Shown here piece after piece: positions 10,935 through 64,000 of a stretch of 64,000 nt of DNA. Both the position numbers and the translations under genes were made by a program. Source of the stretch: a virus (Duplodnaviria > Caudoviricetes); the IMG/VR virus record IMGVR_UViG_3300027833_000011; one strand, given 5' to 3'. Under the pieces are notes generated by a model. The model did not search any database. It worked only from the letters and a program-made list of their open reading frames with translations, and was not told the origin of the DNA. Numbering within the stretch: position 1 is the stretch's first letter; each line of letters begins with the position of its first letter.

Positions 10935-11624
10935 ATGATACATCCAGAAATTTACAGTTATTTTGATGATAAAGAGGCTTGGAAAAGAAAGTATATGAGA
11001 CCTGAGGCTTTATCAATGGAGTGGGATATGATGTTAGAAGAGGTTGGACCTGATGTCTACCAATTTCCACTATTTAAAGAAGAGTTATGTGCTAAATTAA
11101 TTGAAGAAGCTGAAGCGACACAATCGTGGACACATAAAAGACACGCGTTTTATCCCACTACGGATATGTTGGTCGAGACCTTTGGGTTTGAAGAGATATA
11201 CCATGAGATTATGGATGACTATATTATGGGAGCGGCAAGACACATTTACCAATTAAATGGTCAGAATTGGGACCAAGGAAATGTATATTCCGAGAATTTT
11301 ATGATACGTTATTCACCTGAAGAACAGGGACATTTATCATTACATTATGACCAATCGTCAATATCGTGTAACGTAGCATTAAATAACGACTTTGAGGGTG
11401 GTGGTACGTATTTCTCAAGACATAAGGTATTGGCGAAAGCTAAAGGAACAGGTTATGTTACATTTCATCCTGGACAGATAACACACAAACACGGAGGGAT
11501 GCCGACAAACAAAGGAACCCGATATATTATTGTTTCATTTATGAATGACGATAAAAATAGAGAAAATCACATTAATGATTTAGAAAGATTTGCTAACGAA
11601 AAAGGATTCTATAATGATAAATAA
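10935..11624 (+). CDS. PLOD-type lysyl hydroxylase (2OG-Fe(II) dioxygenase), standalone catalytic domain
   Basis: PDVYQFPLF, PTTDM, NFMIRYSPEEQ, HYD (HxD), NVALN, FEGGG, HPGQITHKHGG, GTRYIIVSF, all collinear with the procollagen-lysine dioxygenase C-terminal domain. Confidence 0.85.
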   Translation: MIHPEIYSYFDDKEAWKRKYMRPEALSMEWDMMLEEVGPDVYQFPLFKEELCAKLIEEAEATQSWTHKRHAFYPTTDMLVETFGFEEIYHEIMDDYIMGAARHIYQLNGQNWDQGNVYSENFMIRYSPEEQGHLSLHYDQSSISCNVALNNDFEGGGTYFSRHKVLAKAKGTGYVTFHPGQITHKHGGMPTNKGTRYIIVSFMNDDKNRENHINDLERFANEKGFYNDK

Positions 11625-21123: not shown

Positions 21124-21864
21124 ATGAAGATTGATAGAGTTTATGTCATCACAATGGATATGAGTGATGAATACAAAGATGAGTTATTTGAGAGAGTGTT
21201 AAATTTACCACTACCTTCAAATACACCTGTTGAGTTTAAACAAGGGTTTCCAGGTAAGGATTTATTGGAAAGACCTGAAGACTTTCCTGAGTATCGTATA
21301 TACCCACATTGGAACCTTAACAACCCAGAGGGTTGGTGGTGGTGGCAAAGACCAGCGTTATCAGGTGAAGCGGGTGGTATGATATCACACACAATGTGTT
21401 GGGAAGATGCGTATGAGAAGGGGTATGAAAATATTATGATTATTGAAGATGACTTTACGGTCGAAGAACCTATTGATTGGGGTATCTTTAAAGAACTTGA
21501 TGGTTATGAATGGGATTTATGTTTAATGGCTCACAATTCATTACACGAACATTTTTCAGATATTATGAAACCTTTAAATATTGGTAGAGAACATTTTATC
21601 AGACCAACGTTCTTTTATAATACTCATACTTATATACTTTCTTCGGGAGGTATTAAGAAATTAGTTGAGGACCATTTAGATGTGTTAAAACAAAATATTA
21701 TAGTATCTGACGAATTTTTATCTGCAGTTACTTCATCACATCCAAGACCTGATTTAAGAGAGATGTACATAACTAATATGTCAGCGGTTGCTACAAAAGT
21801 TAATTATACAGGACAAACAAGAAGTGAAGGTTTGGGTAATTCTTTAACCGAGACTGAAAAGTAA
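21124..21864 (+). CDS. GT25 glycosyltransferase, COLGALT (collagen galactosyltransferase)-like
   Basis: RVYVI, RP..GE.G..ISH..W, IIEDDF, WDL, Y....YILS..G..KL, DEFL......HP, terminal SLTE. Confidence 0.75.
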   Translation: MKIDRVYVITMDMSDEYKDELFERVLNLPLPSNTPVEFKQGFPGKDLLERPEDFPEYRIYPHWNLNNPEGWWWWQRPALSGEAGGMISHTMCWEDAYEKGYENIMIIEDDFTVEEPIDWGIFKELDGYEWDLCLMAHNSLHEHFSDIMKPLNIGREHFIRPTFFYNTHTYILSSGGIKKLVEDHLDVLKQNIIVSDEFLSAVTSSHPRPDLREMYITNMSAVATKVNYTGQTRSEGLGNSLTETEK

Positions 21865-38069: not shown

Positions 38070-39476
38070 ATGAAAAACAGGTTAACTTTAGTGACGGTTG
38101 CGACTCATAAGACGCATGAGTTAGATAGGTTTATCGAATCCGCTAAATATCACGGATATGACTATGTTATATTAGGATTAGGGATGGAATGGACTGGTGG
38201 TGTTGCCGACAATGGTCGATTAGTATTTCCCGGTGGAGGAATGAAAGTGAATCTTCTAAAGAATTATCTATCCACATATAAGGGGTCGAATAGCGATGTA
38301 ATACTTTTTACAGACTCCTACGATGTTGTATTCAACGAAAAACCCGATGAGTTATTAAGTAGATGGGACGGCAATGTATTATTTACCGCAGAAAAAACTT
38401 GTTGGCCTGACAGGGATTTGGAAGAAGAATATCCAAATTCACCTTACGGTTATAAATATTTAAATAGTGGTGGTTTTATTGCGACAGTTGGTGACCTAAT
38501 TAATCTAACGGAAACTAAGTGTATGGACCACGACGATGACCAATTATATTATACACTAAAGTTTTTAAATGGTGACAAGATTAATTTGGACTATAATTTA
38601 GACATATTTCAAACTCTTAATCAGTCTATTGATGATGTTGAAATACATGACGGTAGAGTTTATAATAAAGTGACTAAAACGTATCCTATAGTTATTCATG
38701 CTAATGGAGGTGTTGGCCCAAGGACTTATTTAAACAAATTTTATAACGATATGAGACAACCAGAGCCTACATTAAAAAGATTAAACGGTAATGAAAGAGT
38801 GTGTTTACAAATGATATTTGATAAGAAACATACAAATCCGTCAATTATGGTTGAAAGTCTTTCCTACTTAACCTATGATAAAAGATTAATTGATTTATCG
38901 TTTTATAATAATAACAAAGAAAATCAATGGGCTATTGAGAACTACATTAAAAATAATGAAGACAAATATAACTCAATCACACAGGTTTATGACGATAGTA
39001 AAGGGGTTTATGAGTTAAGAGAAATCTTATTTAAAAACGCCACACAATATGATGGGGATTATGTGTTACATAATGACTCGTCGTTTATTATGAAAAATAA
39101 AGATATCATTCAATTATTAATGTCAGAAGGTAAGGATATTATCTCACCAATGATTAATACTGAACAAACGTTTAACTCTAACTTTTGGGGTGGTGTTTCA
39201 GATGATGGGTATTATTTAGAGAGTTACGATTACCACGATATTAGAACGTACAATAAAAAAGGAACTTTTGTTGTTCCATTTATTAGTGGGGTGATGATGT
39301 TTAGTAGTGAAATATTAAAAACTGATTTATTTGTTACGATGTTTAATAATTTAGAAAAAGAAATTCTTAATTATTATGGTGAAGACTACATGGTTGTATT
39401 GGCAAATACTATCAGAGACAAGAATTTGTTTATGTATGTAACCAATAAAAGATATTATGGAAAATTTTTTAATTAA
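38070..39476 (+). CDS. PLOD-type glycosyltransferase plus accessory domain (no hydroxylase domain)
   Basis: VTVAT, F..SA, LGLG..W.GG, GGGMKV.LLK, LFTDSYDV, FTAEK.CWPD, YLNSGGFI, DDDQLYYT, H.NG; accessory IISPMI, SNFWGG...DGYY..S.DY, VPFIS. Confidence 0.88.
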   Translation: MKNRLTLVTVATHKTHELDRFIESAKYHGYDYVILGLGMEWTGGVADNGRLVFPGGGMKVNLLKNYLSTYKGSNSDVILFTDSYDVVFNEKPDELLSRWDGNVLFTAEKTCWPDRDLEEEYPNSPYGYKYLNSGGFIATVGDLINLTETKCMDHDDDQLYYTLKFLNGDKINLDYNLDIFQTLNQSIDDVEIHDGRVYNKVTKTYPIVIHANGGVGPRTYLNKFYNDMRQPEPTLKRLNGNERVCLQMIFDKKHTNPSIMVESLSYLTYDKRLIDLSFYNNNKENQWAIENYIKNNEDKYNSITQVYDDSKGVYELREILFKNATQYDGDYVLHNDSSFIMKNKDIIQLLMSEGKDIISPMINTEQTFNSNFWGGVSDDGYYLESYDYHDIRTYNKKGTFVVPFISGVMMFSSEILKTDLFVTMFNNLEKEILNYYGEDYMVVLANTIRDKNLFMYVTNKRYYGKFFN

Positions 39477-53901: not shown

Positions 53902-56900
53902 ATGGCATTAAGACAATTAGGATTATTCCAACTTAATACGAACCCAGGAACACAAGAAATTGATTTAGGTACTACCGCTAATTTTCTTGATGAAATATTC
54001 GTTGATTCCATATCCGCAAACACTTATTTAGGTGACGGGTCTGGACTTACAATCGACGGTATTGATTCATTAGTCGATAGTCTTTCAATTGAAACTTCTG
54101 CAAGAACAGGAGCTGACACATCGTTAGCTACAAAAATTTCTACAGACGTTCAATCGGCAATCGACAACTTAGTAGATGGTGCACCAAGTGCGTTAGATAC
54201 TTTAGTTGAGTTAGCATCCAAAATCGGTGAAGGTTCCATTAGTGAAGCAAACATCGTAGCTGAGATTAACTCAGTAGGTGTACGTGTAACTAATGAAGCG
54301 GCAACAAGATTGTCAGCGGATGGTTCGTTGGCGACTTTGATTGGACAAGTTTCAACGGGTGCGTCTTCAAACTTAGCGTCTGAGATTCTACAAACTGGTA
54401 ATGAAGTAAATTCATTAACGACTAGAATTTCAACAGAAGAATCTGTTAGAGACACACAGGTAACATCATTAGCCAATGAGATTACAGGTGAGGTTACTGC
54501 TGATATTACTTCGGTTGATACAAGAATCACAGGAGTTGAGGGAGATTTAACTTCAGTAGAGACAAGATTGTCAACTGAAGAGTCTACTATGGTGGTAACT
54601 GTAAATAGTTTAGGTACCGTAGTCGACGGAGACATATCGTCTGTAGTAACTAAGATAGGGGATGAAGAATCTTCTAGAATAGGGGCTGATAATTCATTAG
54701 CAACGTTAATATCTACGGAAGTAGTTAATAGAGAGAGTGAAGATAACGTATTAGACGGTAAAATAACCACAGAGGCATCATCAAGAGGTGTTGCTGATAA
54801 TTCTTTAGGAGATAGAATTGACACCTTAGAAGATAATCCATATGACGATTCATCAATCAACACAAGAGTTGGTGGTGTTGAATCAAGTGCGAGTTCTTTA
54901 GGAGCAAGAATTTCATCTGAAGAGGTAGTTAGATTATCTAAGGATAATTCTATTGCGACAATTGCGGGACAAAATACTTCAAGTATTAATACGGCATCGA
55001 CATCATTAACGTCTAGAATTTCTACTGAAGAAATTGCAAGAACTACGGGTGTAAATTCTGTAAATGATAAAGTAGGTGTTGAGGCTTCAAGTAGAGTTGT
55101 AAAGGATGATTCATTAGACGCTAAAATAGATTCGGAAATATCAACACTTAAATTAGATGTTGTACAGAATGAATCAGACATTAGTGGTGAAGAGACAATA
55201 AGAATTCAGAAAGATAACTCATTAGATAGTAAAATATCTACTGAAGTTGTTACTTTAGAGGCTAAAGACACATCTTTAGCAACTAGAATAGGTGTTGAAG
55301 AAGGTGCAAGAGCATCGTCTGACTCAGCATTAAGTAATGAGATTTCGGTTCAAGCATCGATGAGACAATCAGCGGATACGGCAATTTCAAGTCAATTAAT
55401 ATCAGATATTTCTGTATTAGTTGATGCTGATGATAATTTATCATCTGACATTGTTGCTGAAGAGTCTTTAAGATATGCGGCGGATGATTCATTAACAACT
55501 AGAGTTAGTAGTGTTGAATCGGAAGTTTCATCAAATAAAGCGTCTACAGACACTAGAGTGTTAACAGTTGAAGGTCAAATAGGTGGTATCGATGTTGATA
55601 TTACAGGTTTAACTTCAGGAGTTAATAGTTTAGATAGTAAAATTGATTCAGAAATATCTTCTGAGGTAGTTGCAAGAAATTCAGCAATCGTTGTCGCTAA
55701 AGACGAAATCATTAACGGTGCTGGTGACGCTTACAATACGTTAAGTGAGTTACAAACTGCGTTAGAAGATAACGACGGTGATATAACAACTATATTAACG
55801 GCACAAGGTTCTATTAATACTAGAATAACAACTGAAGAGTCTACTAGACTTTTAAAAGATAGTATTTTAGAGTCTGAAATTGATAATAAAACTAATTCGT
55901 TAGAAACTAGAATCAGTACATTAACATCTAAAGATGTTGTAATTGATTCAGATATAACGTCTGAAGTATCTTCAAGAGTGTCAGGAGATTTATCACTTAA
56001 CAATAGAATATCAAGTGAAGAATCGGCTAGAGAATCTGCAGTTACTGCGATTAATGAAGCTGCTTACGATGATTCATCAATCAACACAAGAGTTGGTGGT
56101 GTTGAATCAGACTTATCTTCTGAAATTAGTTCAGAGGCGTCATCAAGAGTATTAGGTGACAATTCATTAAATACTAAGATTGGTTCAGTATCTACGGCAT
56201 TGGCGTCAGAGATAGGAACAACAAACGGTGAAATCACATCATTAAACACAAGAGTTTCTAACGAAGAAGATAATTCTACGACATTAGAGAATTCTTTAGT
56301 GGGTGTTGATACATCATTACATAGTAGAATTTCTTCTGAAGAGGTTACTAGGAGTTTAGCAGTAAGTTCATTACATGTTAAATCGGGTAACATCACGGGA
56401 GATGTGACTTCTATAGCAAATAGAATACAATCTGAAGAGTCTACAAGACTATCAAGTGATAACATATTAACAGGTTCAGTTGGTTCAATCAATACGAGAG
56501 TTGCAACTGAAGAAGGTAAGTCGACATCATTAACAACGAGAGTTAGTAATGTAGAAAGTGATTTAACTTCAGAAGTTAATTCGGTTGACACAAGAATTGA
56601 TAATATTGAGGCGGCTGCTTACGATGATTCATCTATCAATACAAGAATTGGTGGTGTTGAATCAGACTTAACAACGGCTGAAGGTTCTTTAGAAACAAAA
56701 ATAACTGCAGAGGAGAGTTCAAGAGTATTAGGTGATTCATCACTTACTACTGTAATTAGTACTCTACAATCGGACTTAAATACTGAAATTGCATCTACAA
56801 ATACGGAGATGACATCTTTAGATACGAGATTATCTACGATTGAATTGGATGACGAAACTGTTGAGTCTTCATTAGAAACTAAAATTGGTGGAGTATCTGC

Positions 56901-59900
56901 TGATTTAGCGACTGAGGTTGGAGTAAGAGGTACGGCTGACACTTCATTAACGAATAGAATTGCTAGTGAAGAAACAAACAGAGTTTCTGCGGATTCATCT
57001 TTAGCTCTTTTAATCGGGGGTAACGCATCTGACATTAGTTCACTTAACGAATTATCGGGAGTGTCAATAACAGGTGACGTATTAAAAGTATCAGGTTCAA
57101 ATCAAGCGTTTACTGTTGATTTATCACAGTTTAACGATAATACAGACAATTACATAACAGGAGCGGCACTTTCAGGTGATGTATTAACATTATCAAGAGT
57201 ATCAGGTTCTGTAACGGTAGATTTAGGTCAATATCAAACCTCATCAGAGGTGGCATCACAAATAACAACGGCAATCACAGGTTACGCTACTGAGAATTAT
57301 GTTGATAGTGCAATAGCACCATTAGCAGTAAAAACGGTAGTATCTGCGGCTGACGCTTCATTAAACACTAAGATAGATTCTTTAGACTCAAGTTTAGATT
57401 CAGAGATTTCATCTAGAATTGAAAGTGAGGATTATGTTATCGGTGCTGCGATGTCTAATGACACATTAAAATTAACAAGAGCGAAAGGTGGTGTAGTATC
57501 AGTAGACCTGTCACAATTTATAGATGACACTGACACAGATAACTATATTACAGGAGCTGCGATATCAGGTGATATACTAACATTAAGTAGACAAAACGGA
57601 GACGTTACGGTTAACTTAGGTCAGTATCAAACTTCTTCAGAAGTTGCATCACAGATAGCAACAGGTCTTGTAGGTTACGCTACTGAATCATATGTTGGTT
57701 CGGCAGTTTCACCTAAAGCTAATAAAACATATGTTGATTCACAAGACGCGTCATTAGCGACTAGAATAGATTCAATTGATACGACAATCGCATCACACAA
57801 TGAATTAGACGGAACAAGTTTCGTAGCTAACATACTTACAGTTTCAGGTTCTGAGGCTGACTACTCAGTAGATTTAAGTTCATTAGCAACAGACGTAAAT
57901 GTTTCTTCAGGTTCATACAATTCAACAACAGGTACGTTAACATTAACGAAATCTGACGGTGGAACTGTTGCGGTAAGTAACTTCTATGTAGATGTAAACG
58001 GAGATAACTTTATCACGGGAGCAAGTGTAGTAGGTCAAAACTTAATCTTATCAAGACAAGGGTTAACGGATATTACGGTATCTTTAGCTGGTTTTGTAAC
58101 ATCAGGTGAATTAACAACGGCAATTTCAGACTTCAAGTCAAGTTCAGCAATCGCAACTGATATATCATCAGCGGTGGCTACTGAATCAGGAATCAGAAGT
58201 TCGGCTGACAACTCATTAGCAGTTGCCATATCAGCGGTACAATCAGATTTCGATTCAATACCTGAAGATGAAAATGATTATATTTCATCAGCGGCAATTG
58301 TAAGTAACAATTTAGTTATTACAAGAACTGACGGTGGGACAGTAACAGTTAGTTTAGCACAATTTATGGATGACACTAATACGGATAACTTCGTAACAGG
58401 TGCGTCTTTATCGGGTGATACATTAACATTAACGAGAGACTCAGGTAACTCTATTACAGTTAACTTAGGTCAATATCAAACTTCTTCGGAAGTAGGTGGA
58501 CAAATAACATCAGCATTGGCGGGTTACGCTACTGAGAGTTATGTTGGTAGTGCAATTGCACCATTAGCGGTAGCATCGGCAGTATCTACGGCTGATTCAT
58601 CATTGAACACTAAGATAGACTCTTTAGAATCAAGTTTAAATTCTGAGGTCTCGTCAAGAATAGCAACCGAAGATTATTTAGTCGGAGCTACAATGTCTAA
58701 CGACACATTAAAATTAACAAGAAACTTAGGTGGTATTGTAACAGTTGACTTAGGTCAATTTAAAGACAATACTGACAACTTCCTAACAGGAGCTTCTTTA
58801 TCGGGTGATTTACTTACTCTAACAAGAAACTCAGGTGGTTCATTATCTGTTAACTTAGGACAATATCAAACATCGTCTGAAGTGGCATCACAGATAACCT
58901 CAGCAATTGCTAATTACGCTACTACATCATATGTTAATACTGCTGATACTTCATTGGCAAGTAAAATAACATCTGTAGACACAAGATTCGGTGGCTTACC
59001 ATCTGAAGATTATGTAACAGGAGCGGTTATGTCTAACGACACATTAAAATTAACAAGAGCACAAGGTGGTGTTGTATCAGTAGACTTAAGTAGATATACT
59101 ACGGCTTCTGAATTAACATCGGCTTTATCTCCATACGCAACCTCAGCGGTTACTTCTACACAGATTTCATCAGGAATCCAAACAGAAACAAACAGAGCGG
59201 TTGGTAAAGAGAACTCATTACATACAAGGATTGGTCAAGTATCAACGGCTTTAGGAACTGAGATTGGAACAACAAATAGTGAAGTTACTTCATTACATAC
59301 GAGAGTTGGTTCAGTATCAACGGTAGCGTCGACAAATACTACGAACATTGGTTCAGTATCAGCACTAACAGGTTCATTAAGTTCAGATATCTCTACATTA
59401 GAGGCGTCTGGTTACGATGACTCATCTTTAGCAACAAGAATCTCAACAGAAGAGTCGACAAGGTTAGTTAAAGATAATTCATTAAACACTAAAGTTGGTT
59501 CAGTATCTACGGCAATAGCTAACGAGATAAATTCAACTAATGGTGATATCACATCATTAAACACGAGAGTGGGTAATGAAGAAAGTACGAGAAGTACTAA
59601 AGACAGTTCATTAACAACTGCCTTATCTGCGGAAACCGCAGCAAGGATAGCTGGTGATGGTAGTTTAGGTACACGTATTGATGGTATAAATGAATTAGAC
59701 GGGTTAGTATTCTCATCTAACGTTTTAACGGTAGGTGGTTCTGAAAGTGACTTCTCTGTAGATTTAGGAGTATTAGCTTCTGATGTAACAGTTACAGGTG
59801 GTACATATAATTCAGGAACACAAACATTAAACTTAACGAAGAGTAATAATGATACTATCGCAATCTCAGGATTTGCTATTGACACTGACACTGATAACTT

Positions 59901-60723
59901 TGCTGATTCAGTATCATTCAATTCGACTAATGGTGTATTAACCATTGGTAGAACAGGGACGTTATCTGACATATCAGTTGATTTAGATGGTAGATACTTA
60001 GTAGATACTGTAGACAACAACAACTATGTAGATGGTGCGAGTTTCAATACGACTAACGGTGTCTTAACAATAGGAAGGTCAGGTTCTTTATCTGATATTA
60101 ATATTGATTTAGACGGAAGATTTACAGATAATGGTTACGCAGACGCAATGAACCAACATGTAAAAACTAACTCAGCGGTAACGTTCAGTACGGTTAATAC
60201 AGGTCAGGGAGCGACTGAAGTACATTTAATGAATCAAAATGTTAGAACATCTGACACGGTAACATTCAATCAAGTTAACGCTAGTATTGGTGATATCGAT
60301 GAAATCAGAATTGATACTACAACGTTAACAAGTTCATTAGGTGTCTTATCTATAAACACTGATGTGGAAATCACGGGAGAGTTAAGAGCAACAAGTAAGT
60401 CGTTCTTAATCGACCATCCTACTCAACCTAACATGAAGTTACAATATGGTAACTTAGAGGGACCTGAGCATGGAGTCTACATTAGAGGTAAAGTAGGTGC
60501 TGACGGTATGATTGAATTACCAGAATATTGGACTGAGTTAGTACATGAAGATTCTATAACAGTACAGTTAACTGCTATTGGAGCACCAACAACACACTAT
60601 GTTAAGTCTATTGAAGACAACAAAGTAGAAGTTGGTTCTGAAAGTGGTATAGTAAATGCTTTCTACACGATAAACGCTGAGAGAAAGGATGTTTATAAAT
60701 TAAGAGTTGAATTTCCAGCTTAA
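53902..60723 (+). CDS. giant tail fibre (2273 aa)
   Basis: 18-residue coiled-coil repeats, DNYITGA.LSG..LTL.R...VDL repeats, C-terminal SKSFLIDHP..EGPE.GVY.RG...AERKD domain. Confidence 0.85.
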   Translation: MALRQLGLFQLNTNPGTQEIDLGTTANFLDEIFVDSISANTYLGDGSGLTIDGIDSLVDSLSIETSARTGADTSLATKISTDVQSAIDNLVDGAPSALDTLVELASKIGEGSISEANIVAEINSVGVRVTNEAATRLSADGSLATLIGQVSTGASSNLASEILQTGNEVNSLTTRISTEESVRDTQVTSLANEITGEVTADITSVDTRITGVEGDLTSVETRLSTEESTMVVTVNSLGTVVDGDISSVVTKIGDEESSRIGADNSLATLISTEVVNRESEDNVLDGKITTEASSRGVADNSLGDRIDTLEDNPYDDSSINTRVGGVESSASSLGARISSEEVVRLSKDNSIATIAGQNTSSINTASTSLTSRISTEEIARTTGVNSVNDKVGVEASSRVVKDDSLDAKIDSEISTLKLDVVQNESDISGEETIRIQKDNSLDSKISTEVVTLEAKDTSLATRIGVEEGARASSDSALSNEISVQASMRQSADTAISSQLISDISVLVDADDNLSSDIVAEESLRYAADDSLTTRVSSVESEVSSNKASTDTRVLTVEGQIGGIDVDITGLTSGVNSLDSKIDSEISSEVVARNSAIVVAKDEIINGAGDAYNTLSELQTALEDNDGDITTILTAQGSINTRITTEESTRLLKDSILESEIDNKTNSLETRISTLTSKDVVIDSDITSEVSSRVSGDLSLNNRISSEESARESAVTAINEAAYDDSSINTRVGGVESDLSSEISSEASSRVLGDNSLNTKIGSVSTALASEIGTTNGEITSLNTRVSNEEDNSTTLENSLVGVDTSLHSRISSEEVTRSLAVSSLHVKSGNITGDVTSIANRIQSEESTRLSSDNILTGSVGSINTRVATEEGKSTSLTTRVSNVESDLTSEVNSVDTRIDNIEAAAYDDSSINTRIGGVESDLTTAEGSLETKITAEESSRVLGDSSLTTVISTLQSDLNTEIASTNTEMTSLDTRLSTIELDDETVESSLETKIGGVSADLATEVGVRGTADTSLTNRIASEETNRVSADSSLALLIGGNASDISSLNELSGVSITGDVLKVSGSNQAFTVDLSQFNDNTDNYITGAALSGDVLTLSRVSGSVTVDLGQYQTSSEVASQITTAITGYATENYVDSAIAPLAVKTVVSAADASLNTKIDSLDSSLDSEISSRIESEDYVIGAAMSNDTLKLTRAKGGVVSVDLSQFIDDTDTDNYITGAAISGDILTLSRQNGDVTVNLGQYQTSSEVASQIATGLVGYATESYVGSAVSPKANKTYVDSQDASLATRIDSIDTTIASHNELDGTSFVANILTVSGSEADYSVDLSSLATDVNVSSGSYNSTTGTLTLTKSDGGTVAVSNFYVDVNGDNFITGASVVGQNLILSRQGLTDITVSLAGFVTSGELTTAISDFKSSSAIATDISSAVATESGIRSSADNSLAVAISAVQSDFDSIPEDENDYISSAAIVSNNLVITRTDGGTVTVSLAQFMDDTNTDNFVTGASLSGDTLTLTRDSGNSITVNLGQYQTSSEVGGQITSALAGYATESYVGSAIAPLAVASAVSTADSSLNTKIDSLESSLNSEVSSRIATEDYLVGATMSNDTLKLTRNLGGIVTVDLGQFKDNTDNFLTGASLSGDLLTLTRNSGGSLSVNLGQYQTSSEVASQITSAIANYATTSYVNTADTSLASKITSVDTRFGGLPSEDYVTGAVMSNDTLKLTRAQGGVVSVDLSRYTTASELTSALSPYATSAVTSTQISSGIQTETNRAVGKENSLHTRIGQVSTALGTEIGTTNSEVTSLHTRVGSVSTVASTNTTNIGSVSALTGSLSSDISTLEASGYDDSSLATRISTEESTRLVKDNSLNTKVGSVSTAIANEINSTNGDITSLNTRVGNEESTRSTKDSSLTTALSAETAARIAGDGSLGTRIDGINELDGLVFSSNVLTVGGSESDFSVDLGVLASDVTVTGGTYNSGTQTLNLTKSNNDTIAISGFAIDTDTDNFADSVSFNSTNGVLTIGRTGTLSDISVDLDGRYLVDTVDNNNYVDGASFNTTNGVLTIGRSGSLSDINIDLDGRFTDNGYADAMNQHVKTNSAVTFSTVNTGQGATEVHLMNQNVRTSDTVTFNQVNASIGDIDEIRIDTTTLTSSLGVLSINTDVEITGELRATSKSFLIDHPTQPNMKLQYGNLEGPEHGVYIRGKVGADGMIELPEYWTELVHEDSITVQLTAIGAPTTHYVKSIEDNKVEVGSESGIVNAFYTINAERKDVYKLRVEFPA
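56994..59100 (+). repeat. internal modular duplications within the giant fibre
   Basis: Blocks such as GQYQTSSEVASQI..GYATE.YV and EDY..GA.MSNDTLKLTR recur three to four times; aatgacacattaaaattaacaaga-like DNA near 57456, 58698 and 59037. Confidence 0.8.
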
Positions 60724-60771: not shown

Positions 60772-63588
60772 ATGGCTAAGAACATAATTATCACACCGAA
60801 TTTAACAGGGACAGATAATCCAAACATAGCTATCACCAATGGAAATGAAGAGATTGTCATCGGCTTAAACGCCGGTGGCTCTCTTATCTTCCAAGATGGT
60901 GGTGGAGCTACGTTATTGGAACTGGACTCTAATGGTAACGCCACAGTAAAGAACCAAAACCTTAAAACTAATCAGTTTACAGTAAACTCACAAGACGCTT
61001 TCGACGAGTCCCTTTATGTAGGTCCATCAGGACACTTAAAAGGACAGAAAGGTATCAAAGGAAACATAGGACCCACCGGAGCTCAAGGAGCGAAAGGAGT
61101 AATTGGGGCAAAAGGTTTGAAAGGATACATTGGTTCCGTAGGGGTGGTAGGTGCCCAAGGTGCTCAGGGTACTCAAGGACAAGTAGGTGCAACTGCACCA
61201 CAAGGTCCAAAAGGCCCAATAGGAAATGCAGGTCCAATAGGACCCGTAGGACCAAAAGGAGGACAAGGTACTCAAGGACCTAAAGGTTACGTAGGTAATC
61301 AAGGGAGTAAAGGAGTAACAGGACCTAAAGGTCTAAAAGGAGGAGTAGGTCTACAAGGACCAAAAGGTGCTTCACCTCAAGGACCACAAGGACCGCAAGG
61401 ACCTCAAGGACCACAAGGACCGCAAGGACCTAAAGGTTATAAAGGGATAAAAGGTGCGACAGGGAATGTCGGACCAACAGGTTATAAAGGTATCGCGGGT
61501 ACTAAAGGTAACGAAGGACCCATAGGGGACAGAGGAGCCACAGGACTTAAAGGATACAAAGGTATTACAGGACCTAAGGGTCAGACGGGTAATAAAGGAC
61601 CCAAAGGTAATGCCGGTGACCAAGGACCTACTGCATCGAAAGGTGTGTTAGGTAATAAAGGTACTAAAGGTAATAAAGGTGTCATTGGCTCGAAAGGGTA
61701 TAAGGGCAACAGAGGAACTCAAGGACCAAAAGGATATGAACCGAAAGGACCGAAAGGATACCAAGGACCGAAAGGATACAAAGGTATCAAAGGAAATAAA
61801 GGTATTAAAGGTATTACAGGACCAGGTGGACCGAGAGGTATACAAGGTGGTGGTGGTGACTTAGGACCTACGGGAACTGCAGGTATCAACGGACCAAAAG
61901 GACCAAGAGGTGTTCAAGGACCTGTCGGTACTCAAGGACCAAAAGGTTATAAGGGTGTCAAAGGTATCAAAGGACCTCAGGGTACAAAAGGACCTCAGGG
62001 AGACCAAGGAGGACCAGGTGCTAAAGGTGTTATTGGAGGCCAAGGTAATAAAGGTATAAAAGGTAACGCAGGACCAAAAGGTTATATTGGTTCTTCTATT
62101 AAAGGTAATAGAGGAGGACAAGGACCAACAGGTTATAAAGGTATCAAAGGTAATAAAGGTGTTAAGGGTATCAAAGGAAACTTTGGACCACAAGGACCTA
62201 CAGGACTAAAAGGAAACCAAGGAGGACAAGGTGCTAAAGGATATGCTGGAGCTACAGGAACTAAAGGTAACCGAGGTGGTACTGGAGGTTCTGGAGACAA
62301 AGGTGTTACAGGACCAGGTGGACCAACAGGTGGAAAAGGTATTAAAGGTAACATAGGTGGCCAAGGAGCAAGAGGTAATACAGGAGCCCAAGGTTATCAA
62401 GGAGCAAGAGGTACTACAGGACTTAAAGGAAATAAAGGTATTAAAGGTTATCAAGGACCAGGTGGACCAACAGGTGGTAAAGGTATTAAAGGTAATATCG
62501 GACCAGGTGGACCAACAGGGCCAGGAGGTGATAGAGGACCAGGAGGTGATACAGGTGGTAAAGGTTACAGAGGTGACCAAGGACCTGTAGGACAGAAAGG
62601 TTATAAAGGAGCACCAGGTGGTAAAGGTATCAAAGGTAACATAGGTGGTCAAGGAGCGAGAGGTCCACAAGGAGGACAAGGGTCTCAAGGACCACGAGGT
62701 GGAACAGGACCAAAAGGACCTAAAGGTTACAAAGGTAATGCTGGTAACAAAGGTTATCAAGGTGCTAAAGGTATCAAAGGTAATAAAGGAACTAAGGGTT
62801 ATACAGGTACTCAAGGGTTGAGTGGTGACAAAGGTTATATAGGTGGACCAGGAGGACAAGGACCAGCTGGAGGTAATAATACGACTAAAGGTGGTAGAGG
62901 AGCTACAGGTTCTTCTCCAAAAGGTTATATTGGAGCACAAGGTAACAAAGGTGTTAAAGGTTTTATAGGTAATCAAGGACCGGGAGGTGACATATATTTG
63001 GTATCAAATTTCCCTGATGCACCAAGTGGACCAACAGGTGATAGAGGACCTACAGGTTCTAATGGTACATCTAAAGGACCAAAAGGATATGCAGGACCTT
63101 TAGGTGCTAAAGGTAATCAAGGACCAAAAGGACCAACGACTTTCGGAAGCAAAGGTAAGAGAGGTGCAAAAGGTACTGGAGGACCAAAAGGACCTACAGG
63201 TTATAAAGGTATTAGAGGGCCGAATGGTTATAAAGGACCAAAAGGACCTACAGGAAATACATCTGATGCAAGATTGAAAGAAAACATTAAAGAGTTAACA
63301 GGTGGTATTGAAAAAATATCAAAACTTAGAGGTGTTAAATTTGATTGGGTAGAAGGTTCTATACATAATGTACACGAAGTTAAAGGTAGAGATGCTGGTT
63401 TTATCGCTCAAGAAGTTAATGAGGTTTTACCTGAGTTGACTAATATAATGAATGAAGAGAATGGTACGATGCAAGTTAACTACGCTAAGATGACTTCAGT
63501 ATTAATTTCAGCGCTGAGAGAACAGAGGGAAATCGTTAAAGAATATACTGATAAACTTGAAATAATTAAATTAAATCGTTCGAAATAA
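60772..63588 (+). CDS. Lys-rich collagen-like fibre with a C-terminal Peptidase_S74 intramolecular chaperone
   Basis: About 240 Gly-X-Y triplets (approx. 61040-63258) with short interruptions; SDARLKENI...GFIAQEV..VNY S74 motifs. Confidence 0.92.
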   Translation: MAKNIIITPNLTGTDNPNIAITNGNEEIVIGLNAGGSLIFQDGGGATLLELDSNGNATVKNQNLKTNQFTVNSQDAFDESLYVGPSGHLKGQKGIKGNIGPTGAQGAKGVIGAKGLKGYIGSVGVVGAQGAQGTQGQVGATAPQGPKGPIGNAGPIGPVGPKGGQGTQGPKGYVGNQGSKGVTGPKGLKGGVGLQGPKGASPQGPQGPQGPQGPQGPQGPKGYKGIKGATGNVGPTGYKGIAGTKGNEGPIGDRGATGLKGYKGITGPKGQTGNKGPKGNAGDQGPTASKGVLGNKGTKGNKGVIGSKGYKGNRGTQGPKGYEPKGPKGYQGPKGYKGIKGNKGIKGITGPGGPRGIQGGGGDLGPTGTAGINGPKGPRGVQGPVGTQGPKGYKGVKGIKGPQGTKGPQGDQGGPGAKGVIGGQGNKGIKGNAGPKGYIGSSIKGNRGGQGPTGYKGIKGNKGVKGIKGNFGPQGPTGLKGNQGGQGAKGYAGATGTKGNRGGTGGSGDKGVTGPGGPTGGKGIKGNIGGQGARGNTGAQGYQGARGTTGLKGNKGIKGYQGPGGPTGGKGIKGNIGPGGPTGPGGDRGPGGDTGGKGYRGDQGPVGQKGYKGAPGGKGIKGNIGGQGARGPQGGQGSQGPRGGTGPKGPKGYKGNAGNKGYQGAKGIKGNKGTKGYTGTQGLSGDKGYIGGPGGQGPAGGNNTTKGGRGATGSSPKGYIGAQGNKGVKGFIGNQGPGGDIYLVSNFPDAPSGPTGDRGPTGSNGTSKGPKGYAGPLGAKGNQGPKGPTTFGSKGKRGAKGTGGPKGPTGYKGIRGPNGYKGPKGPTGNTSDARLKENIKELTGGIEKISKLRGVKFDWVEGSIHNVHEVKGRDAGFIAQEVNEVLPELTNIMNEENGTMQVNYAKMTSVLISALREQREIVKEYTDKLEIIKLNRSK

Positions 63589-64000
63589 TGGCACTACAAA
63601 AAGGAAACAAAGGGATACATATATTCCCAAATAGAGTAGGTACGAATGAACCTAAAATAGAACTTTATCAAGGTTCTACTACGTATACACTAGAGGTAGA
63701 AGACAATACTAATGATGTTGTTATATTCTTAAATGGTACAGAGGTTGCTCGTATGAAATCATCAGGTGATGAAAGATTTCAAATTGTTGGAGACCTAATA
63801 ATTGACGGAGATTTAAGAGACTCAAGTGGTAACGTAATCGTAACTCAATCAGGTATATACAACGGAACATTTCAAGGTACTACAGGTGACAGAGGACCTC
63901 AGGGACCTCAAGGTAACCAAGGACCTAAGGGAATAAAAGGACCAAAAGGTAACTTTGGACCTACAGGTCAGAAAGGACTTAAAGGTATTGCTGGTAATAA
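63588..64000 (+). CDS. second collagen-like protein (partial, runs off the window)
   Basis: TAATG coupling; MALQKGNKGIHIFPN... then GTTGDRGPQGPQGNQGPKGIKGPKGNFGPTGQKGLKGIAGN. Confidence 0.85.
   Translation, partial: MALQKGNKGIHIFPNRVGTNEPKIELYQGSTTYTLEVEDNTNDVVIFLNGTEVARMKSSGDERFQIVGDLIIDGDLRDSSGNVIVTQSGIYNGTFQGTTGDRGPQGPQGNQGPKGIKGPKGNFGPTGQKGLKGIAGN

Follow-up and report, generated by a model that had tools for sequence, protein, structure and literature searches.

The virus record IMGVR_UViG_3300027833_000011 (Caudoviricetes), of which a stretch of 64,000 nucleotides was analysed (hereafter the window), carries a tail-fibre gene, P0001, whose product is for the most part collagen-like, with lysine crowding the third (Y) position of its Gly-X-Y triplets. 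This raises the question as to whether these lysines are there to be hydroxylated and glycosylated, as a preliminary description made from the sequence had supposed, or whether they serve the fibre in some other way. Because Lys-rich collagens cluster beside phage collagen-modifying enzymes across viral DNA, we regard the fibre as a likely substrate of three enzymes that the phage itself encodes, its chains forming a homotrimeric collagen-like rod on the virion. The elements to be looked for in such a substrate are found together here, namely Y-Lys-Gly sites in the fibre, a co-encoded lysyl hydroxylase (LH) with its Fe and 2-oxoglutarate (2OG) ligands, a GT25 glycosyltransferase, a PLOD-type glycosyltransferase (PLOD-GT), and covariation of Y-lysine with the enzymes from one viral genome to the next.

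P0001 scores 241 bits against the Pfam Collagen family (PF01391, cutoff 27.2; E 5.8e-73) and matches Peptidase_S74 over residues 831-889 (E 1e-15). Its triplets fall into 11 runs, of which the longest counts 86, and a fully helical rod would measure about 212 nm. Tabulation of the open reading frame (ORF) and its translation bore out the composition first described, including the Gly-X-Y rod and the lysines at Y. Lysine holds 85 of the Y positions (n = 236; 36%), followed by Gln (42), Thr (31), Ile (16) and Arg (16), and the X positions are filled by Pro (62), Asn (30), Tyr (25), Ala (22), Gly (21) and Ile (19). There is a single lysine at X and there are three prolines at Y, in agreement with the earlier statement that Pro occurs essentially only at X, and the hand count of about 37 Y-lysines in the first 85 triplets came close to the 34 found by strict definition and the 36 Lys-Gly (K-G) dipeptides. 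Of the 92 lysines in the collagen region 91 come directly before glycine, the commonest triplets being GPK (20), GPT (14), GIK (13), GYK (11) and GNK (10). Acidic residues are as rare as had been noted, with D+E = 14 against K+R = 108 and 3% of X and Y positions, and the chain contains neither KGD nor KGE, the charge pairs of streptococcal Scl2-type collagens. The mature chain (residues 1-830) has an isoelectric point (pI) of 10.4 and a charge of about +87 at pH 8.

The Y-lysines are spread evenly along the rod at 9-13 per 30 triplets, and their clustering in adjacent triplets was not significant (35 observed, 28.9 expected, p 0.06). K-G is continued by Tyr, Asn or Ile 54 times out of 85, by Pro, which is under-used there, 10 times and by Asp never; this bias could be a recognition context for the enzymes or the trace of repeat amplification. 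Seen from the X side, 19 of the 25 tyrosines and 17 of the 19 isoleucines come after a Y-Lys. All six interruptions named in the preliminary description are present, together with four more (GPT-ASK-G, GGN-NTTK-G, GTS-K-G and GPT-TF-G), and by spacing they comprise five G4G, two G5G, one G3G, one G6G and one 13-residue break. G4G interruptions are typical of non-fibrillar collagens.

This composition was compared with a panel assembled blind to composition, by scanning IMG/VR for GG at 9-base spacing over 16 triplets (a GGN7 x 15 pattern), which yielded 101 loci; the largest collagen ORF of each was taken and its X and Y residues tabulated. Matches from tblastn of the collagen against phages were dominated by GPQ runs and the low-complexity filter and were not used as a panel. 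The fraction of Y positions held by lysine (Y-Lys) has a median of 0.014 and a 90th percentile of 0.25 in the blind panel, with values of at least 0.36 in only 5%, placing P0001 (0.36) at about the 95th percentile. Per triplet its net charge amounts to +0.38 to +0.40, at about the 98th percentile, the panel median being -0.09 and +0.40 being reached by 2%. Threonine behaves differently, with a panel median at Y of 0.24 and 66% of the panel equalling or exceeding the 13% of P0001. AT bias was considered as a cause of the lysine richness and rejected, GC content and Y-Lys showing no correlation (Spearman rho 0.015) and low-GC loci having a median Y-Lys of 0. In prokaryotic and viral collagens Pro normally fills X and Gln or Thr fills Y, and Thr takes 31.6-48.3% of Y positions in bacterial collagens (PMC8968730).

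The three candidate enzymes are encoded in the window by separate, dispersed genes (Table 1). The LH domain at 10935 aligns with residues 503-714 of human LH3 (E 3.7e-34), including the HxD, H and R positions, and with the LH domain of mimivirus L230 (E 2.1e-27). For the GT25 protein at 21124 the only PDB matches are to procollagen galactosyltransferase 1 (COLGALT1, E 7e-07). The protein at 38070 matches LH3 residues 15-492, which span the glycosyltransferase (GT) and accessory (AC) domains (E 1e-55), and the whole length of mimivirus R699 (E 4e-51), the latter having been shown experimentally to be a glucosyltransferase acting on galactosyl-hydroxylysine (Gal-Hyl; PMC9546862).

In order to look at the association from the side of the enzymes, IMG/VR was searched with an alignment of PLOD-GT domains (A1); a query with a single PLOD-GT protein found nothing and one with the P0001 C-terminus only three loci. 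Relatives of the PLOD-GT were present on 473 IMG/VR contigs, and among the best 80 of these 473 a collagen ORF (at least 16 triplets, within the available flank of 10 kb or less) lay at 49, nearly always on the same strand. The collagens linked to the enzyme had a per-locus median Y-Lys of 0.26-0.29, reached at least 0.16 in 89% of loci and had almost no lysine at X (Mann-Whitney p ~1e-11 for Y-Lys against the blind panel), and Y-Thr was not raised in them. The preliminary description had held that its proposal would fall if the Y-lysine frequency were ordinary among phage collagens from genomes lacking the enzymes and the unmodified helix were already stable; on the first point lysine at Y proved to be about 20-fold more frequent beside the enzymes than at the viral median. 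As the loci are related to one another they were collapsed by identity of the GT domain, and all 12 of the 12 clusters with collagen nearby at 70% identity had Y-Lys between 0.17 and 0.74 (p 3e-7); at 50% identity all 5 of 5 reached at least 0.28. Conversely PLOD-GT was found in only 1 of 106 blind-panel records, where the collagen has a Y-Lys of 0.24, and in ten genomes of at least 90% completeness, all lacking both enzymes, Y-Lys lay between 0 and 0.25 (median about 0.01). Together with the LH, GT25 and PLOD-GT homologies in the window, this comparison supports the earlier suggestion that the Y-lysines are substrates for modification.

The lysines of enzyme-linked collagens are also differently placed. 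The pairing of lysine with an acidic residue in K-G-D/E is the classic interchain salt bridge of collagen. Among Lys-rich collagens, taken as those with Y-Lys of at least 0.16, those with no enzyme seen carry a net charge of -0.11 per triplet and have 87% of their Y-lysines in K-G-D/E, compared with +0.12 per triplet and 38% in those linked to the enzymes (p 7e-6). P0001 is the extreme of the enzyme-linked pattern, with 0% in K-G-D/E and +0.38 per triplet.

The closest relatives of the enzyme (47-51% identity; loci L129, L130, L131 and L165) accompany fibres with Y-Lys of 0.43-0.47. Orthologues of the P0001 N-terminal domain (MAKNIIIVP...) begin the Lys-rich collagen ORFs of L129, L131 and L165, whose Y-Lys is high despite divergence of sequence and many more interruptions. 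These orthologous fibres lie at L131:18036-20703, L129:10187-11117 and L165:19770-20697, with about 30 breaks per 206 triplets in L131; the interruptions often read G-x-x-S-T-D-K-G or G-x-x-A-S-Q-G, Lys or Gln still preceding Gly. Judged from their sequences, frequent breaks are a family trait of the orthologous fibres.

A second arrangement is seen where the enzyme domains are fused. The most Lys-rich collagen of the blind panel (L066, 52% Y-Lys) is directly upstream of a gene for a GT4+GT25+LH fusion. At L235 (G093:C1:2000-21559) a 2235-residue collagen with lysine at 229 of 442 Y positions (52%) is followed by a 753-residue GT4+GT25+LH fusion and then by a sulfotransferase-family gene, which hints at sulfation as a further modification of that fibre.

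Fused enzymes are present in cultured phages too. According to tblastn searches the enzymes are encoded by the Synechococcus phages S-CAM9, S-PRM1 and S-8S53/55/56 as well as by Roseobacter phage CRP-6; in these phages GT25, PLOD-GT and an LH-like C-terminus form one polypeptide of 589-613 residues, encoded 0-3 genes after collagen-bearing tail-fibre genes. The collagens of these fibres have Y-Lys of 37%, 39% and 44% in the cyanophages and 26% in CRP-6, with a GxKGQKG motif, and the S-CAM9 fibre has a C-terminal S74 domain as well. Fusion of the three activities argues that the three dispersed genes of the window belong to one pathway. The fusion genes include N161109_031 of S-CAM9 (gp031, L123:5365-7203) and gp58 of CRP-6 (L125:10130-11896), both annotated in GenBank as hypothetical protein, and in S-CAM9 the fusion gene is directly preceded by genes for two more small 2OG-Fe(II) oxygenases. 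The cultured S-CAM9, S-PRM1, S-8S53 and CRP-6 offer laboratory systems in which the prediction is testable.

Several observations weigh against modification of the fibre by these enzymes. Moderately Lys-rich collagens, with Y-Lys up to 0.25, occur in near-complete genomes free of the enzymes, most of the panel contigs counted as enzyme-negative are fragments, and the loci compared are phylogenetically non-independent. The enzyme genes of the window do not adjoin the fibre gene but are separated from it by 22-50 kb. In the viral genome G032 a GT4+GT25+LH fusion adjoins collagens with Y-Lys of about 0.01, built of GPI, GPQ and GPR, and an LH-type domain beside a collagen therefore does not always signify a Lys-rich substrate; the specificity of such enzymes cannot be read from homology alone. 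The sugars are likewise ones that we infer only from homology, and according to PMC9614988 mimivirus L230 adds glucose (Glc) where animals add galactose (Gal). The G032 locus (L233, G032:C1:97500-117400) belongs to a complete 170-kb record and encodes a 794-residue GT1/4+GT25+LH-like fusion and a P4H-like 2OG oxygenase beside two collagens with 67-88% Pro at X and about 1% Lys at Y, as well as a 2645-residue (G-T/S-S)n protein.

If the fibre is nevertheless the substrate, as we think likely, a sequence of events can be proposed. The LH (10935) would form 5-hydroxylysine (Hyl) at up to 91 X-Lys-Gly sites of unfolded chains in the host cytoplasm, the GT25 enzyme (21124) would add the first sugar and the R699/LH3-like enzyme (38070) the second, giving a decoration of the Glc-Gal-Hyl type. 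Modification of collagen lysines must precede formation of the helix, as in animals (PMC8968730). The S74 domain would then trimerise, probably nucleate the zippering of the triple helix from the C- to the N-terminus, and be excised through its Ser831/Lys836 dyad. The expected product is a polycationic rod, dense in sugars, whose lysines are free of K-G-D/E salt bridges.

The part assigned to the S74 domain can be assessed from the protein itself. It lies at the extreme C-terminus (PF13884, 58.2 bits, cutoff 22), in a region that matches the far C-terminal ends of many PHROG tail-fibre families, and contains the Ser-Lys dyad S831/K836 in SDARLKENI, with Lys five residues after Ser. This segment aligns with SDRRIKKDI of phage S16 gp37 (6F45, E 5e-6), its dyad aligns with S587/K592 of the MyRF ICA domain, and the SD.RLKENI motif is kept in homologues. 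Members of the S74 family cut on the N-terminal side of the nucleophilic Ser, between P586 and S587 in MyRF, whose S587/K592 are the equivalents of endoNF S911/K916 (PMC8326128); cleavage of P0001 is therefore predicted between Thr830 and Ser831, at the last triplet (GNT). The chaperone of the preliminary description thus stands, with its dyad and a predicted trimer, but the cut is not expected at S-D as that description had it; its analogy with a procollagen C-propeptide is a reasonable one. A three-copy model of residues 795-938 gave an ipSAE of 0.80 (best control 0.00), contact agreement of at least 94% and a partner pLDDT of at least 78, a mark that in calibration 20 of the 30 solved one-chain pairs attained, as did 1 of the 23 single chains. 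As similar solved complexes exist, the model shows likeness and not proof, and its score may reflect structures already learned by the predictor. In the model residues 1-48 of the fragment (collagen residues 795-830 and the junction) are placed in contact between chains. The domain probably releases itself from P0001, and since it would remove itself the mature fibre should end in collagen, with no globular tip. A search anchored on S74 returned 69 fibres, 1 of them collagenous, which shows, as far as these homologues go, that the chaperone is a generic tail-fibre module; a direct junction of collagen and S74 was seen in one other viral contig (L008).

Lysine might instead be retained mainly for its charge, the polycationic rod sticking to anionic polymers of the host surface or to the acidic 2273-residue protein encoded upstream, with few or no lysines modified. 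The high pI and charge of the mature chain agree with this, and the upstream neighbour (pI 4.1) is strongly opposite in charge; two adjacent fibres at about -195 and +87 could pair electrostatically. Loss of the S74 domain would moreover leave the fibre without a globular receptor-binding tip. Hydroxyl and sugars are attached at C5 of lysine and the epsilon-amine keeps its charge, so that modification cannot offset the cationic charge as the preliminary description had proposed, and both roles can coexist. We nonetheless consider it unlikely that charge is the main role, as it leaves unexplained both the restriction of lysine to Y (85 there, 1 at X) and the tracking of uncompensated Lys-rich collagens with the enzymes across lineages. 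Arginine, in host-guest peptide studies the more helix-stabilising cation at Y, was moreover taken up only 16 times there.

The enzymes might also act on another protein of the virion or the host, the lysine richness being then a product of lineage drift or of amplification of a K-G-Y/I/N-K repeat. The distance of the enzyme genes from the fibre gene and the G032 collagens fit such a view, and recurring KGYKGIKGNKG-like motifs, along with the preference for Tyr, Asn or Ile after K-G, suggest internal duplication. We find this improbable, however, since the association recurs in 12 lineages of the enzymes and with two distinct fusion architectures, diverged orthologous fibres have retained their high Y-Lys, and AT bias is excluded as a cause. 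Finally, glycosylation of threonine, to which the preliminary description thought the chain might also be tuned, has its model in Bacillus anthracis BclA, which has GPT repeats and is Thr-glycosylated; P0001 by comparison is below average in Thr, and its Y positions are not dominated by it. That Y-Thr is a second major site, O-glycosylated by a putative Thr-directed GT cluster at the start of the window, is highly improbable in spite of 31 such residues, 14 of them in GPT, given that their 13% share is below both the viral median and the 31.6% of all bacterial collagens, that Thr at Y is the prokaryotic default (PMC8968730), that it is no more frequent in enzyme-linked collagens, and that nothing ties the GT cluster to collagen.

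Returning to modification of lysine by the phage's own enzymes, glycosylation of collagen Hyl is textbook animal biochemistry and the mimivirus is, to our knowledge, its single viral exception. Mimivirus L230 is described in PMC9614988 as hydroxylating and glucosylating lysines of Lys-rich viral collagens, with Hyl found in virions. The likeness to the phage is close, as mimivirus combines Lys-rich, Pro-poor collagens (L71 and R240 among others) with PLOD-type LH, PLOD-GT/AC and GT25-like enzymes (L230, R699 and the GLT25D-like R655), whereas here the reactions would take place in the cytoplasm of a bacterium, a separate gene encodes the LH domain of 229 residues and the substrate would be of the tail-fibre type with an S74 domain, that of mimivirus being a capsid-fibril protein. 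Animal procollagen with LH3/PLOD3 and COLGALT1 resembles the proposed system in the modification of X-Lys-Gly before the helix forms and in a C-terminal trimerisation module that is later removed. P0001 differs from it in having no hydroxyproline, in having Pro essentially at X and Lys at 36% of Y as opposed to a few percent in animals, and in an unrelated, self-cleaving trimerisation module, and no cross-linking enzymes were seen in the window.

With the K1F endosialidase endoNF, S16 gp37 and T5 pb1 the fibre shares the PF13884/MEROPS S74 family, the Ser-Lys dyad, the C-terminal position and a predicted trimer; their chaperones follow a triple beta-helix, whereas that of P0001 abuts the collagen helix directly (GNT followed by SD). 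The fibres of the cultured phages (N161109_027 of S-CAM9 with N161109_031; S-PRM1 and S-8S53/55/56; CRP-6 gp60 with gp58) also have collagens with 26-44% Y-Lys within three genes of the enzymes, but there the collagen is an insert of 55-99 triplets in a larger fibre and contains K-G-E pairs, and in P0001 it forms the whole rod. Streptococcal Scl2-type collagens are alike in being free of hydroxyproline and in favouring Pro for X and polar residues for Y (PMC8968730); with so few acidic X and Y residues and no K-G-D/E pair, P0001 lacks their salt-bridge scheme.

A wider proposal, towards which we lean with some reserve, is that phages make a true glycocollagen in bacteria, in which up to 91 lysines per chain (about 270 per trimer) become glycosylated Hyl, and that the substrate has co-evolved with enzymes homologous to LH3 and COLGALT1, its lysines having been freed from their K-G-E/D role. 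A search of the available literature found no paper on hydroxylysine collagen in phages. If the proposal is true, a modification regarded as restricted to animals and giant viruses would also be common among marine phages, given that 473 IMG/VR contigs carry the glycosyltransferase. Modification as predicted would imply that the pathway works in the bacterial cytoplasm, which matters for the production of authentically modified recombinant collagen; the mimivirus enzymes are already valued for their solubility in E. coli (PMC9546862). It would also constitute a new surface chemistry of phage fibres, one with possible consequences, in the ocean, for adsorption, resistance to proteases or host range. 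The comparison further provides a composition rule for likely substrates, namely lysine only at Y, without K-G-D/E partners and with LH/GT25 genes adjoining.

Table 1. Features of the fibre locus and the candidate modifying enzymes, with positions in the window
Feature	Position	Strand	Basis or remark
Collagen-like tail-fibre gene (P0001), 938 aa	60772..63588	+	ORF and translation, Pfam
N-terminal non-collagen domain, aa 1-90, pI 4.35, acidic	60772..61041	+	presumed virion-attachment end
Collagen domain, aa 91-830: 236 G-X-Y triplets, 10 interruptions, 91 X-Lys-Gly sites	61042..63261	+	
Longest interruption, YLVSNFPDAPS, aa 742-752; 13 residues lie between flanking Gly	62995..63027	+	
Predicted autocleavage bond between Thr830 and Ser831 (T830 and S831 codons)	63259..63264	+	
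S74 intramolecular chaperone/autoprotease domain, aa 831-938	63262..63585	+	Pfam, PDB match, predicted homotrimer
Stand-alone PLOD-type LH domain, 229 aa, candidate first enzyme	10935..11624	+	Pfam OGFOD2-like and 2OG-FeII_Oxy
GT25 glycosyltransferase, COLGALT-like, candidate Hyl galactosyltransferase	21124..21864	+	Pfam Glyco_transf_25 3.8e-09
PLOD GT and accessory-domain protein, 468 aa, R699/LH3-like, candidate Gal-Hyl glucosyltransferase	38070..39476	+	Pfam GT_PLOD 1.5e-64
Ser/Thr-rich fibre-like protein, 2273 aa, pI 4.1, about -195 per chain	53902..60723	+	directly upstream of P0001
Second collagen-like fibre gene, cut by window end	63588..64000	+	Pfam Collagen 9.4e-07

The N-terminal domain of P0001 (residues 1-90), presumably the end by which the fibre attaches to the virion, belongs to no Pfam or PHROG family and its Atlas leads are all below 0.9. 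It shares a weak motif, I-I/H-I-x-P-N-x-x-G-T-x-x-P, with the N-terminus of the second fibre encoded downstream, the start of which overlaps the P0001 stop by one base (63585-63590) and which by eye has lysine at Y in 5 of its first 12 triplets. The two genes may be translationally coupled paralogues, and a heterotrimer is possible. The C-terminus of the 2273-residue protein encoded upstream matches phrog_17490 and phrog_28536 and has a weak match to a minor tail protein.

When 22 kb of the window was compared by megablast with deposited phages, no match was obtained at the DNA level. Almost all genes of the window are on one strand, and they include those for ClpP (22470), a sigma-70-like factor (24424), DnaJ (33347), a non-specific endonuclease (42059) and thioredoxin (42698), a MetK-like C-terminal domain encoded on the minus strand (45212), a Dam methylase, amidases and an SbcC-like protein. 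Such auxiliary content is typical of jumbo phages, and the window, from a marine phage, looks like part of one.

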